A stretch of 64,000 bases of DNA from a virus (IMGVR_UViG_3300022748_000015:1-64000); one strand, 5' to 3'; numbered from the stretch's first letter, positions 44,027-48,701 are shown. Translations and numbers: made by a program. Notes: generated by a model from the sequence alone, not told the origin.

Positions 44027-45841
44027 ATGAGTGTCTTTGTAGAACTCGATGATTCTGGTGAGCACATCATCATTAACGCTGAGTGGCGTTTAAAAGAACT
44101 GTGCAAGAGTCTTCCTGGTGCTTCTTGGAGTGCTAAGGAGTCTATCTGGCGTATTCCGGCATCCTGGGCTGGTTGTCTAGCTCTACGTTCTACCTTTAAG
44201 TCTGATCTGGTCCTAGGACCTCACCTTACTGAGTGGGCAAAGCACGAGAAAACTACTCGAGTTGACCCGTCTAATGATCTACGTGATGTGGATGTTATGG
44301 AGGAGGGCGATCAGGATCTTTTCCCTCATCAGCGTGCTGGCGTAAAGTTCCTCTCTACGGCTCGTAGAGCCCTTCTAGCAGACGAACCAGGACTTGGTAA
44401 GACTGCTCAGGCTATTCGCTCCCTAAAGGCCATGCATGACCAGGGGGAGGCTGTTTTTCCTGCTCTCATTGTCTGCCCGAACACCCTTAAGAAGAACTGG
44501 GAACGTGAGTTCGATAAGTGGTGGCCTGGGGTTAATGTGACCGTTATTGGTGGAACTGCAACAAAGCGTCGTGCCTTGTTTGATCAGGACTCCGATGTGG
44601 TTGTAGTGAACTGGGAGTCTCTGCGCAGCCATTCTCGCCTATCACCATATGGCTCGATTTCTTTAGCTCGTTGTATCGAGTGTAAGGGCCACGATTCCCG
44701 TATCACTCCAAACCGCTGTGAAGTTCACCAACGTGAGCTAAATACCATTGGTTTCAAGGCTGTAATTGCTGACGAGATTCACCGTTCAAAAGATCCAAAG
44801 TCAAAGCAGACCCGTGCTCTTTGGGCCGCTACTGGCGATGCGGATATCCGCTTTGCGCTTACCGGTACTCCTATTGCTAAGGATGTTGTTGATCTTTGGC
44901 CTATTCTTCACTGGATTTCTCCAGAAGAATGGCCTAGTCGTACCAAGTGGATTGACCGCATGATTGATACCATGCTCAATGCTTTTGGTGGCATGATGGT
45001 TCTAGGTGTGAAGCCTCACATGGAGCAGGAGTTCTATGCTGCTATTAACCCACGCATGCGACGCATGCTGAAGGCTAAGGTACTTCCTTGGCTTCCAGAG
45101 GTTATCAATGACCGCCGTGATGTCGAGATGGGTGCTAAGCAGCAAAAGGCTTACAATCAGATGCTAGACAATATGATTGCATTGATCGAAAAGGAAGACG
45201 GGACTGTTGGGGATGCTGTTGTAGCTCCTAACCCGCTTACTCAAATGCTGCGCCTTCTCCAGCTCGCTAGCTCATACGCTGATGTGACTATTGATCCTGT
45301 TAGCGGTGAAGAAGTTGTAGTTTTGTCAGACCCATCGTGTAAGGTTGATGCTCTGATGGATGACATGAAGAATGGTGACTTCGGTGATGATAGCGTAGCT
45401 GTCTGTGCCGTATCTCGCCAGCTCATCGATCTCCTTAGCGCACGCCTAACTAAGGAGGGTATCGCTCATGGTCTGATTACTGGAGCAATCGATGCTGATG
45501 AACGTCAACGTCATATCGATGAGTTCCAGTCTGGCAAGACTAAGTGGATTCTATTTACTGCCCAGGCTGGCGGTGTGGGTGTTACCTTGACAACTGCACG
45601 CAGACTTGTTATGCTACAAAGACCATGGTCACTTGTCGACTATAAGCAGGCTCTTGACCGTGTACACCGTATTGGTTCTGAAATCCATGATTCCGTAATC
45701 ATTACAGACTACGTAACTGAAAATACTGTTGAAGAGCGTGTAATTCAGGCTCTAGACACCAAGGCTGACAACTTTGAGCAGATTGTGCGTGACAAGGATG
45801 CACTTCTCAAAATGCTTAAGGAAAGCAAGGGAAAGAAATAG
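44027..45841 (+). CDS. SNF2-family (SF2) helicase
   Basis: LADEPGLGKT, IADEIHR, ALTGTP, AGGVGVTLT, QALDRVHRIG. Confidence 0.92.
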   Translation: MSVFVELDDSGEHIIINAEWRLKELCKSLPGASWSAKESIWRIPASWAGCLALRSTFKSDLVLGPHLTEWAKHEKTTRVDPSNDLRDVDVMEEGDQDLFPHQRAGVKFLSTARRALLADEPGLGKTAQAIRSLKAMHDQGEAVFPALIVCPNTLKKNWEREFDKWWPGVNVTVIGGTATKRRALFDQDSDVVVVNWESLRSHSRLSPYGSISLARCIECKGHDSRITPNRCEVHQRELNTIGFKAVIADEIHRSKDPKSKQTRALWAATGDADIRFALTGTPIAKDVVDLWPILHWISPEEWPSRTKWIDRMIDTMLNAFGGMMVLGVKPHMEQEFYAAINPRMRRMLKAKVLPWLPEVINDRRDVEMGAKQQKAYNQMLDNMIALIEKEDGTVGDAVVAPNPLTQMLRLLQLASSYADVTIDPVSGEEVVVLSDPSCKVDALMDDMKNGDFGDDSVAVCAVSRQLIDLLSARLTKEGIAHGLITGAIDADERQRHIDEFQSGKTKWILFTAQAGGVGVTLTTARRLVMLQRPWSLVDYKQALDRVHRIGSEIHDSVIITDYVTENTVEERVIQALDTKADNFEQIVRDKDALLKMLKESKGKK

Positions 45842-46404
45842 TGACTCTCCTTAACTCGATGCCGTGTAGTTTTTGTGGAGAATATTTTGTTCCAGGCGGG
45901 GCACTATATTCTCACGAGAAAGCCTGCGCTAATGGTGGAGCTAAAAGAAGACGTAGAACTAAATATCGAGAAATATTTTTTGCTAATAATGGTCCTGGGC
46001 CCTATACTTGCAGTTTTTGTGAAAAGCCTGCAATATTTGATGAGGTAATAGTTCATCACCAGGATCACGACGAGACAAATAATGATTTGACAAATCTAAA
46101 AGCTTGTCATAGGATTTGCCATAATAGCCATCATTTTAAAGATCTTTGGTCGGAAAAATCTGATGAACTATTAGCCAGTAAAACTAGAGGGCATAGAGTC
46201 CCTCATAGTGAAGAAACAAAACGGCGCATGAGTGCTGAAAATAAGACAAAAGGATATAGACCTAAACCAGAAGCAATAGCTAAAGCAGCTGAAGTAAATA
46301 GAGGAACCCCTCGTTCTGCTGAAACTAGAGCAAAAATAAGTGAAGGTCATAAGAGAAGAAAAGCAGCTAAGGCTGCTCAGGAGGTGATGCCACATGACGA
46401 TTGA
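45841..46404 (+). CDS. free-standing HNH endonuclease with NUMOD3 motifs
   Basis: CSFC...VHHQDHDETNNDLTNLKACHRICHNSHH; HSEETKRRMS and RSAETRAKISE NUMOD3 repeats; visibly more AT-rich than its neighbours. Confidence 0.88.
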   Translation: MTLLNSMPCSFCGEYFVPGGALYSHEKACANGGAKRRRRTKYREIFFANNGPGPYTCSFCEKPAIFDEVIVHHQDHDETNNDLTNLKACHRICHNSHHFKDLWSEKSDELLASKTRGHRVPHSEETKRRMSAENKTKGYRPKPEAIAKAAEVNRGTPRSAETRAKISEGHKRRKAAKAAQEVMPHDD

Positions 46405-46447
46405 ATCTGTACGAATTAGTAATTCCGAGATCCAAACGTTTAAGTGA
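46394..46447 (+). CDS. 17-aa N-terminal segment of the exonuclease (MTIESVRISNSEIQTFK*)
   Basis: GAGGTGA SD 6 nt before ATG46394; sequence fits the family N-terminal S.S.I.TF motif. Confidence 0.7.
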   Translation: MTIESVRISNSEIQTFK

Positions 46448-47337
46448 AGGACTGTCGTCGTCGTTGGTGGCTGACTTACTATCGTCGCCTTAAGCCAAAG
46501 CTACAAAACTATACTGGAGCTCTTGCTCTAGGTTCTCGTATCCACGAGGCACTAGATCGCTACTACACCTCCGGTATGGAGCGTGATCTTCTTGAGATCC
46601 ACGCTGAGCTTGTCAAGGAAGATATCGATAAGCTAAACAAGGAATACCGTGATACTACAGAGCTTGAAACAGAAGCTGAGCTCGGTCGTGTAATGCTCGA
46701 GGGGTACCTTGAGTGGATTGAGCTCGAAGGTATCGATGCAGAGCTCGAGATGATCTCTACTGAAGAGATTATCGAGCGTCCAATGCTTGACGGTAAGGTT
46801 ATCCTACAAGGTAAGATCGATATGCGTGTCCGCCGTAAGATTGACGGTGTACGTATGTTCCGTGACTTCAAGACCGTTGGTGGCTCATTCGCTGAGTTTG
46901 GGTCTATTGCTCACATGAACGAGCAGGTTCTAACCTACATGACCTTGGAAGAGGCTCAGAACCAGAACGGTGAACGTTCCGAGGGCGGTATATTTACAAT
47001 GCTTCGTAAGGTTAAGCGTGGTGCTTATGCAAAGCCACCATTCTATGACCAGATCGAAGTTCGCCACAATCGTTTTGCACTACGCTCGTTCTACCAGCGC
47101 CTAGAGGGTGTCCTGGAAGACATGATGCGAGTTCGTGAGGGTCTCGATGCTGGCGAAAGCCATTATAAGCTTGCCTACCCAAAGCCTTCTCGTGAATGCA
47201 AGTGGAAGTGCCAATTCTTCGCTATTTGCCCGCTTATTGACGACGGTTCTGCCGCCGAAGCAGCAATTAGTGATGCGTTTGAGTCATCCGACCCATACGG
47301 TTATTACGGAATCGAAGAGAAGAAAGGAAGTGAGTAA
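46444..47337 (+). CDS. Cas4/RecB-like PD-(D/E)XK exonuclease with Fe-S cysteines (main segment)
   Basis: DCRRRWW, LGSRIH, GKIDM...RDFKT, C-terminal ECKWKCQFFAIC. Confidence 0.85.
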   Translation: MKDCRRRWWLTYYRRLKPKLQNYTGALALGSRIHEALDRYYTSGMERDLLEIHAELVKEDIDKLNKEYRDTTELETEAELGRVMLEGYLEWIELEGIDAELEMISTEEIIERPMLDGKVILQGKIDMRVRRKIDGVRMFRDFKTVGGSFAEFGSIAHMNEQVLTYMTLEEAQNQNGERSEGGIFTMLRKVKRGAYAKPPFYDQIEVRHNRFALRSFYQRLEGVLEDMMRVREGLDAGESHYKLAYPKPSRECKWKCQFFAICPLIDDGSAAEAAISDAFESSDPYGYYGIEEKKGSE

Positions 47338-47339
47338 GA

Positions 47340-48107
47340 ATGTCGGAAGTCGATCGCAGTCTAACAATTATGGTTTATGGCGAATCGAAGGTTGGTAAGT
47401 CAACCTTTGCCGTTACAGCACCTTACCCACGCCTAATGCTTGACGTAGAGGGTGGACACCGCTTCCTCCCTATCAATGTAAAGTATTGGGATCCAATTCG
47501 CGAAGAGCCGCCTCAGGCGGACGGTACTTGGGACACTGTTGTGGTCCAGGTTCGCGACTATGAAGTCGTTATGAAGGCCTTCCAGTGGCTTCAGAGCGGC
47601 AAGCACCAGTTCAAGTCTTTGATCATCGACTCGATCTCTGAGTTGCAGGTCAAGTGCATGGACAACATTGCAGGAACCGAACAGATGAAGATGCAGCAGT
47701 GGGGAGAGCTTCTCCGCCACATGGGTGCCCTACTTCGTGACCTTCGCGACCTTACAATGCATCCAACTCAGCCGCTAGAAGCTGTAGTCCTAACCGCAAT
47801 GGCACGTAAGGGTCAGGATGGCGTATATCGTCCCTACCTACAGGGCCAGCTTGCAATCCAGGCTCCCTACTTCTACGACATTCTTGGCGCAATCACCGTG
47901 GAGCAGGTACCAAACCCTGACCCACTACAGCCACCGTATAAGGTGCGACGCATGTATGTAGAGCGTACGCCTGACTATGAGGCTGGAGAGCGTGTCCAGG
48001 GCCGTCTAGGTAAGGTAGTTGAGCAGGGAGACCTTGGCGTCGAACGTATGCTCGATATCGTCTTCGGTGAAAAGAAGACACCAGCAACAAAGAAAACAAC
48101 TAACTAG
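47340..48107 (+). CDS. AAA-family ATPase (Sak4/AAA_24-like recombination protein)
   Basis: YGESKVGKST Walker A, LDVEGG, IIDSISE; next to exonuclease and SSB. Confidence 0.82.
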   Translation: MSEVDRSLTIMVYGESKVGKSTFAVTAPYPRLMLDVEGGHRFLPINVKYWDPIREEPPQADGTWDTVVVQVRDYEVVMKAFQWLQSGKHQFKSLIIDSISELQVKCMDNIAGTEQMKMQQWGELLRHMGALLRDLRDLTMHPTQPLEAVVLTAMARKGQDGVYRPYLQGQLAIQAPYFYDILGAITVEQVPNPDPLQPPYKVRRMYVERTPDYEAGERVQGRLGKVVEQGDLGVERMLDIVFGEKKTPATKKTTN

Positions 48108-48125: not shown

Positions 48126-48701
48126 ATGTCTCTAAATTGGAGCGATCTCATCAAGGAAGCCGGAGAGGCTACCAACAGCTTCGAGCCACTGCCAGACGGT
48201 GACTACGAGTTCAAGGTGGTAGAGGCTAAGGCCACCACCTCACAGTCGGGTAAGGTAATGTTCAAGACTACCAACGAGGTAATTAGCGGTCCATACGCTA
48301 AGCGTCGCGTCTGGGACAACCTTGTTATCTCGCCAGAGAACAGCAAGGCTCTTGGAATGTTCTTCATGAAGATGGGTGCCCTTGGTCTTAACAAGGACTT
48401 CTTCAACGCAAACCCAACCAACGCTCAGATCGAGCAGGCTCTATTTGGTCGTGGTTTCCGTGGAACTCTTGCTACCCGTACCTACAATGGCAACCAGAGC
48501 AACGAGATCAGCAAGTACTTTGCTGCTCCTGCCGTAGCTCAGGCTGCTTTCTCAGCTCCAGCTGCTCCAGCACCTGCTGCAGCACCTGCACCGGCTCCAG
48601 CAGCCCCTGTAGCTGCAGCACCAGCTCCGGCTGCTGCTCCTGCTCCAGCACCGGCCCCTGCCCCTGCTGCCCCTGTAACCTCGGACGACACTCCGTTCTA
48701 A
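48126..48701 (+). CDS. DUF669-like single-stranded DNA-binding protein
   Basis: FEPLPDGDYEFKV...SGKVMF...RRVWDN; AP-rich tail ending DDTPF. Confidence 0.82.
   Translation: MSLNWSDLIKEAGEATNSFEPLPDGDYEFKVVEAKATTSQSGKVMFKTTNEVISGPYAKRRVWDNLVISPENSKALGMFFMKMGALGLNKDFFNANPTNAQIEQALFGRGFRGTLATRTYNGNQSNEISKYFAAPAVAQAAFSAPAAPAPAAAPAPAPAAPVAAAPAPAAAPAPAPAPAPAAPVTSDDTPF

Follow-up and report, generated by a model that had tools for sequence, protein, structure and literature searches.

The 64,000-nucleotide stretch of viral DNA analysed here (IMGVR_UViG_3300022748_000015:1-64000; the window) carries on its plus strand a gene for a predicted Cas4/RecB-like nuclease whose reading frame is broken close to its start by five additional nucleotides, and upstream of it, overlapping its first codons, a gene for a predicted HNH homing endonuclease. 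The first portion of the nuclease gene, the N-piece (46394–46444), begins at an ATG at 46394 behind the Shine-Dalgarno sequence GGAGGTG (46380–46386, within the 3′ end of the HNH gene) and consists of 17 codons encoding the nuclease N-terminus, MTIESVRISNSEIQTFK, which corresponds to positions 1–10 of the Pfam model PDDEXK_1. It ends in TTT AAG. This last AAG (Lys17, 46442–46444), the putative take-off codon of a ribosomal hop, is followed by a TGA stop at 46445–46447 and by a second AAG, the putative landing codon, at 46447–46449. From 46450 the sequence continues GAC TGT CGT in another frame, that of the C-piece (46450–47337, GAC to the stop TAA), which lies within a 297-codon open reading frame (ORF) matching PDDEXK_1 at 2e-16. 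The frame of this long ORF is closed on its 5′ side by a TAA at 46441–46443, so any switch of frame must fall within 46442–46449. Measured against uninterrupted relatives, the window gene holds exactly five extra nucleotides (AAG-TGAAG-GAC), given here as the TGAAG at 46445–46449; their exact placement is ambiguous within 46442–46449, and they hold the TGA and complete the second AAG. A random 5-mer yields a stop together with a matched landing codon in 2/1024 cases.

We compared this junction with those of all nuclease loci retrieved, 205 in number. In the nearest isolate, Actinomycetia phage DSL-LC01, the protein is unbroken at the junction (...ISNSEIQTFKDCRRKWW...), as it is in 76 of the 80 best IMG/VR relatives. 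The 205 junctions comprise 184 that are uninterrupted, 182 with Phe/Tyr-Lys and Asp-Cys adjacent and two (L114 and L145) with Trp-Lys, and 21 that are interrupted. We distinguish five interrupted lineages: A, the window itself; B (L021 and L082); C (L084, L085, L088 and L090); D (L087 and L095); and E (L100), which was found through an alignment of HNH homologues. The nucleases of B, C and D are 84%, 77% and 72% identical to that of the window, and the TGAAG insert is invariant in A–D. Lineage E has a 7-nt insert instead (TTT AAG TGACAAG GAT), in a nuclease gene whose product is 85% identical to that of the uninterrupted locus L070, with a ratio of non-synonymous to synonymous substitution rates (dN/dS) of 0.033. 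The take-off AAG and the Shine-Dalgarno sequence are kept in all five lineages, including lineage C, which has no HNH gene. A preliminary description of this DNA had pointed out the 5-nt split, the strong Shine-Dalgarno sequence and the AAG-stop-AAG arrangement, and had noted that removing the five nucleotides gives a seamless protein. These observations are all borne out: relatives read through without the gap, the seamless join is the one found in the isolate and at the 184 uninterrupted junctions, the AAG-stop-AAG arrangement is invariant across the 5-nt lineages, and the orthologue alignment it had proposed finds the insert conserved in A–D and replaced by the 7-nt version in E. Two gene calls, P0090 and P0102, start MKDCRRRWWF and, judging from these calls alone, may represent two more lineages of the 5-nt type. 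Another call, P0066 (278 aa, on a 25,014-bp JGI contig), belongs to a nuclease 92% identical to the window's and is made from an internal Met (MQNFTG...); it is about 34 residues short and may reflect another kind of interruption near the N-terminus.

The identical 5-nt junction occurs in several independent samples, as pattern scans of IMG/VR and JGI metagenomes revealed, the contribution of the metagenomes being further copies of B and D alone. A looser junction pattern matched uninterrupted genes for the most part, since its TTYAAR also fits TTCAAA, and its matches were filtered by script; a pattern scan for other gaps of 1–12 nt after Gln-Thr-Phe-Lys found none beyond this junction. Downstream of the insert the gene remains under strong constraint. 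Compared with the nearest uninterrupted relative of each lineage, the downstream frame of A–D has a dN/dS of 0.04–0.07 with synonymous sites saturated, values indistinguishable from those of pairs of uninterrupted genes, and its ∼295 codons have accumulated no stops. Judged by these comparisons the insert is real and old, and neither an artefact nor the mark of a pseudogene: the junction is the same in A–D although HNH genes from A, B and D share only 52–71% identity and synonymous sites are saturated, which makes the association of HNH gene and insert old as well. Lineage C (L084/L090) is set apart in the nuclease tree by a long branch (0.35 changes per site; median, 0.026) and has a dN/dS of 0.04; it is either divergent without sampled close relatives or has evolved faster after loss of the endonuclease.

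The C-piece scores 61 bits against PF12705 (cut-off 22); for the uninterrupted relative L003 the score is 70 bits (model positions 1–247). Residues D141, D156-x-K158, Q176...Y180, C19, C267, C271 and C277 are invariant in the alignment of relatives and all are present in the window ORF, with one cysteine near the N-terminus and three near the C-terminus (C-x3-C-x5-C); the C-piece holds the first Fe–S cysteine as well as the D...DxK and QxxxY motifs. K17, D18 and C19 are invariant in 28 aligned sequences. The window gene is accordingly assigned to the Cas4/RecB-like PD-(D/E)XK nucleases (PF12705), its activity and its Fe–S cluster being predicted, and the PDDEXK_1 match and invariant C19 agree with the family reading of the preliminary description, which had recognized the N-terminal motif that leads to the first Fe–S cysteine. 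A profile search of PDB sequences found no solved relative of the nuclease, and an AlphaFold2 model of an uninterrupted relative was poor (predicted local distance difference test, 58).

The free-standing HNH gene (45841–46404, plus strand, 187 aa) encodes a protein with NUMOD3-like repeats, which has weak HNH_3 and NUMOD3 matches and is assigned to phrog_9443, an HNH endonuclease family. The NUMOD3 match in the window, at 19.2 bits, is just below the cut-off, and PF07460 is precomputed for several homologues; H66, H67, N79, H88, N89 and H92, which make up the HH..N..H..H motif, are invariant in 14 HNH homologues. The GTG start of the gene occupies the position of the nuclease start in uninterrupted genomes. 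In a set of 80 loci it is present in 3 and missing from all 77 uninterrupted ones, where the helicase gene adjoins the nuclease gene, as it is from DSL-LC01; among the loci compared it occurs only together with the insert. In A, B and D the HNH gene is intact and keeps the catalytic motif, and its proportions of non-synonymous differences (0.23–0.37) are well below those of synonymous ones (0.72–0.84), which places it under purifying selection. Lineage C has in its place a 23-codon in-frame relic with the same start and the same ...EVVPNDV end, and retains the Shine-Dalgarno sequence, the N-piece and the 5-nt insert. We classify the product as a predicted free-standing homing endonuclease, found sporadically between conserved genes in close relatives. 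The HNH identity of this upstream ORF, and the cassette edge described below, had gone unnoticed in the preliminary description. No HNH relatives were found in isolated phages (tblastn against 50,697 phage records, E ≤ 1e-6) or in genome contigs.

Over window positions 46380–46404, and over the same stretch of L082, L087 and L100, the HNH C-terminus reads either ...GGGAL/GGDAL or ...EVMPHDD/EVMPNEE. These two endings are two reading frames of the same conserved DNA, from which it follows that the DNA or RNA is what is conserved here (Shine-Dalgarno sequence, N-piece start and the 5′ arm of the hairpin described below) rather than the HNH C-terminal peptide. A distant, shorter HNH relative (42% identity, 126 aa) lies at 2489–2869 of L101, a phage of higher G+C content, between genes for DNA polymerase I and a RuvC-like protein, with no obvious frame-breaking insert near it.

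Several observations delimit a mobile unit. The interrupted lineages are scattered over a maximum-likelihood tree of the nuclease body, whose well-supported branches force at least four gains or losses. Affinity changes at the insert: the 33 conserved nucleotides 5′ of it most resemble those of other cassettes, the 150 nt 3′ of it those of the uninterrupted neighbour of the lineage in question. For the first Ser of the N-piece, 4/4 cassettes use AGT and 58/58 uninterrupted haplotypes use TCN. On the 5′ side, homology to the uninterrupted L003 ends after GTGAC at the end of the helicase gene, just past the former nuclease start. From the switch of affinity, the AGT codon and the break in homology, we infer that the mobile unit (45846–46449, plus strand) consists of the HNH gene, the Shine-Dalgarno sequence, a copy of nuclease codons 1–17 and the insert, which would form the 3′ edge of the cassette. 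By analogy with known homing systems, and in view of the linkage of HNH gene and insert, the HNH protein would cut the allele that lacks the insert and the allele that carries it would be immune. The preliminary description had suggested that programmed bypass could set the level of the nuclease; linkage to an HNH cassette is the likelier reason for the insert's existence.

How is the broken gene read? Two ORFs that are out of frame with each other encode contiguous parts of one conserved protein, and of the frame changes considered only a hop gives back the invariant FK|DC unaltered; slippage by −1 or +1 would add two residues. The two insert types bear on this directly. Lineage E has AAG-TGA and, immediately ahead of the Asp codon, another AAG, as the 5-nt type does, and in both types the landing codon is the first AAR triplet met on scanning forward from the take-off codon. 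The frame relation nonetheless differs, being −1 in the 5-nt type and +1 in the 7-nt type, so that in lineage E the GTG that overlaps the stop lies in the dead third frame. A mechanism indifferent to the length of the gap, provided that the landing codon matches, accounts for both insert types, whereas reinitiation at GTGA accounts for only one. The stop concerned, TGA, is the rarest in this phage (10 of 121 long ORFs).

Selection on the N-piece points the same way. In their 11 conserved codons the N-pieces of A–D differ by at least 7 synonymous changes and by no non-synonymous one (P about 1e-5 to 9e-5), and the N-piece of lineage E differs from that of L070 synonymously in 8 codons and non-synonymously in 1; within cassettes the N-piece is, by this measure, under selection at the protein level. 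As a check for a nascent-peptide signal, N-piece conservation was compared with that in uninterrupted genes and proved equal. The 16 nt ACG TTT AAG TGAAG GA are constant in A–D although 12 of 14 flanking degenerate codons vary, a constancy with a P of 0.015 when three core codons are considered and of 1.4e-4 when eight positions are. Taken together, these data suggest that the gene is probably decoded by a +5 (or, in lineage E, +7) ribosome hop from AAG to AAG. No phage-encoded tRNA-Lys that might aid hopping was found, the search returning 10 other tRNAs and a transfer-messenger RNA (tmRNA). The tmRNA gene (tag ANSRSAFALAA) is followed by the 10 tRNA genes, none for Lys, at 93033-98032 of the phage's own genome (G000:C1), beyond the window; where ribosomes stall at recoding sites, a tmRNA carried by the phage could be of consequence.

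A candidate RNA signal lies upstream of the take-off codon. Folding the RNA of the N-piece ORF alone (ViennaRNA, minimum free energy and pair probabilities) gives a hairpin with its 5′ arm at 46396–46403 and its 3′ arm at 46433–46440 (plus strand), the latter ending 1 nt before the take-off codon. In all five lineages the 5′ end of the N-piece (nt 2/3–10) is predicted to pair with the nucleotides immediately 5′ of the take-off codon. Summed from end to end, the pair probability amounts to 6.75–8.36 in the five cassette lineages; in 23 uninterrupted controls it averages 0.88 and reaches 4.06 at most. Of shuffled sequences, 0.3–3.7% attain the observed values. The stem of lineage E is built of different letters, and lineage D has a U·G pair for the C·A mismatch of B and C. 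In these models, then, a hairpin ending at the take-off site is specific to the cassette lineages; that it drives the hop is speculative. The closing stem is revealed only by a fold limited to the N-piece ORF. No conserved structure was seen 3′ of the junction, and folds of the whole region gave unremarkable z-scores.

These elements can be assembled into a mechanism. An HNH homing-endonuclease cassette would insert at the start of the nuclease gene and supply a Shine-Dalgarno sequence and its own copy of nuclease codons 1–17, with the 5-nt TGAAG (7-nt TGACAAG in lineage E) as its 3′ edge; by analogy with T4 MobA/gene 60, the insert would disrupt the target site of the endonuclease and so protect the carrier genome. 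A ribosome translating the 17-codon piece would come to AAG while the rare stop TGA occupies the A site; its peptidyl-tRNA-Lys would unpair, the mRNA would advance by 5 nt (or 7) and the tRNA would re-pair with the next AAG. Decoding would then restart at the Asp codon, giving exactly the ancestral ...QTFK-DCRR... and a whole nuclease. The hairpin would probably re-zip as the mRNA exits the ribosome, favouring forward movement. We put at roughly 0.55 the probability that the locus is a natural, selected stop-hop of this kind, that is, a cassette that has a minimal immunity insert of 5–7 nt and brings the signals for its recoding, namely Lys codons that match, a rare stop and, upstream, a hairpin driving the ribosome forward, and one of a wider, unpublished class of HNH-borne mini-bypasses in environmental phages. 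The matched-codon stop-hop proposed in the preliminary description is, with the second insert type, the selection on the N-piece and the cassette-specific hairpin, the best-supported explanation of the locus.

A number of points weigh against it. There are two independent insert types only, and lineage E is a single contig. At take-off, the 3′ arm of the hairpin sits inside the ribosome footprint, and RNAalifold applied to a wider stretch finds no consensus structure, reaching only −5 kcal/mol with no compensatory pairs. Short hops are inefficient in E. coli constructs. Finally, in A–D the stop overlaps an in-frame GTG (GTGA), a classic layout for reinitiation, and lineage E offers an ATG in the downstream frame, 13 codons upstream.

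These last two points favour the expression of two separate products without recoding, in which the 17-mer ends at the TGA, the rest of the nuclease starts at GTG46444 (A–D) or at the upstream ATG (E), and the 17-mer is supplied in trans or is dispensable. Gene callers indeed begin the protein at this GTG (P0019–P0021, P0090 and P0102), and the four Fe–S cysteines and the catalytic motifs all lie in the C-piece. Nevertheless, no Shine-Dalgarno sequence precedes GTG46444 or the ATG of lineage E, and one homologous cassette would need two start mechanisms, the second of which puts 13 junk residues in place of the N-piece. The protein-level selection on the N-piece would in turn require a free 17-mer working in trans, and the landing AAG of both insert types and the hairpin would be left unexplained. 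We consider such split expression doubtful. Reinitiation at GTG46444, which the preliminary description had raised as an alternative, may operate in the 5-nt lineages and fails in lineage E.

A single-nucleotide frameshift at a shifty stop, AAG-UGA, is improbable. The reading frames fit, with −1 in A–D giving ...FK-VK-DC... and +1 in E giving ...FK-DK-DC..., and slow stops that follow Lys codons are known to promote shifting (Weiss 1987, as cited in PMC5009743). However, re-pairing would be poor in either case (AAG to UAA for −1, AAG to AGU for +1), homologous cassettes would have to shift in opposite directions, and the two added residues would fall inside a motif that is invariant in all relatives. 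More improbable still is removal of the extra bases before translation, either at the RNA level or through a subpopulation of genomes without them, since 5–7 nt is far below any known intron length, there is no homopolymer for transcriptional slippage, and the insert is in all assemblies. The remnant of an element with group I-like borders envisaged in the preliminary description is discarded on the same ground of length, and it has no structural basis. An alternative genetic code or readthrough of the TGA was also rejected, since the zero frame, which is not that of the nuclease, is closed again by a TGA within 9 codons. That the gene is dead, through an inactivating scar of endonuclease activity, or the insert an assembly error is scarcely tenable: the frame is formally broken and lineage C sits on a long branch, but a dN/dS of 0.03–0.07 with saturated synonymous sites in every interrupted gene, C included, rules out a pseudogene, and the same junction in many contigs, five lineages and independent samples disposes of the sequencing or assembly error that the preliminary description had allowed for.

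The closest parallel to a stop-hop at this locus is the mobA/gene 39/gene 60 cassette of phage T4, which reportedly includes a translational bypass of 50 nt (Huang 1988; Bonocora 2011). In the T4 MobA element the endonuclease travels with an element-encoded copy of the target segment, 'HomR', and a bypass cassette (Manning & Atkins, bioRxiv 10.1101/2022.08.31.505936), and for gene 60 a stem-loop in the mRNA leaving the ribosome has been proposed as the driver of forward movement (bioRxiv 10.1101/2024.12.09.627546). The likenesses extend to most of the arrangement. In both systems an HNH homing endonuclease accompanies a non-coding insert in an adjacent, essential-type gene of DNA metabolism; the element bears its own copy of the displaced target segment (HomR in T4, the N-piece here); take-off and landing codons are matched, with a stop directly after take-off; the insert is in every genome that has the endonuclease and in some that have lost it, scattered among close relatives; and there is an RNA stem-loop upstream, albeit with a different geometry here. 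The differences are as clear. The gap measures 5 or 7 nt against 50 in T4, too short to hold an A-site take-off stem-loop; the matched codon is AAG (Lys) where T4 has GGA (Gly), and the nascent chain has only 17 residues; and the gene affected encodes a Cas4/RecB-like nuclease in freshwater viruses of actinophage-like type. Because the HNH protein has no similarity to isolate-phage proteins at E ≤ 1e-6, the association appears independent of that in T4. The locus would thus seem to work like the T4 mobA/gene 60 cassette without being a member of its family.

Two further systems share the shortness of the gap. Engineered +5 and +6 stop-hops of low efficiency in E. coli, attributed to Weiss et al. 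(1987) in PMC5009743, likewise have matched codons flanking a stop and a peptidyl-tRNA that re-pairs a few nucleotides downstream; the candidate described here differs in being natural, conserved in diverged lineages, in a gene under selection, and accompanied by a hairpin. In the terminase gene of Streptomyces phage Hau3, bypassing of 10-nt inserts has been inferred from an invariant junction, with mass spectrometry support in E. coli (PMC10732093). There too short frame-breaking inserts lie in an actinophage gene whose relatives have an invariant junction, whereas the slow A-site codon is the rare sense codon UUA, the proposed role is regulatory and no homing endonuclease is involved (PMC10732093). 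Termination-reinitiation at ATGA or GTGA shares with our locus the GTGA at the junction of A–D; it differs in that the GTG of lineage E is out of frame and in that part of a conserved, selected domain would be discarded.

To our knowledge, programmed bypassing has been documented in nature for very few systems (gene 60 of T4 with its relatives, the mitochondria of Magnusiomyces and, probably, phage Hau3), and short stop-hops between matched codons in engineered constructs only. Shorter natural counterparts have long been presumed (2016 recoding review, PMC5009743). If the stop-hop reading is true, it adds a second, independent link between a homing endonuclease and a bypassed insert, and the selfish element would protect the site it occupies, within an invariant motif of the protein, and yet spare the gene. 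A minimal and readily tested system of 17 codons, a hairpin and 5 or 7 nt would be useful for asking what suffices for a ribosome to hop. For annotation, it would mean that genes called as N-terminally truncated beside HNH genes may be whole.

Upstream of the HNH gene lies an SNF2-family helicase gene (44027–45841, plus strand; Pfam SNF2-rel_dom at 1e-39, and Helicase_C) whose synteny holds in DSL-LC01 and in 77 loci, and whose stop overlaps the nuclease start in uninterrupted relatives. Downstream of the nuclease is a gene for a Sak4-like/AAA_24 recombination protein (47340–48107, plus strand; Pfam AAA_24 and phrog_124, Sak4-like). The ORF that follows it, at 48126–48701 of the window, has at its end a long Ala/Pro-rich, low-complexity tail (APAPAAAPAP...).

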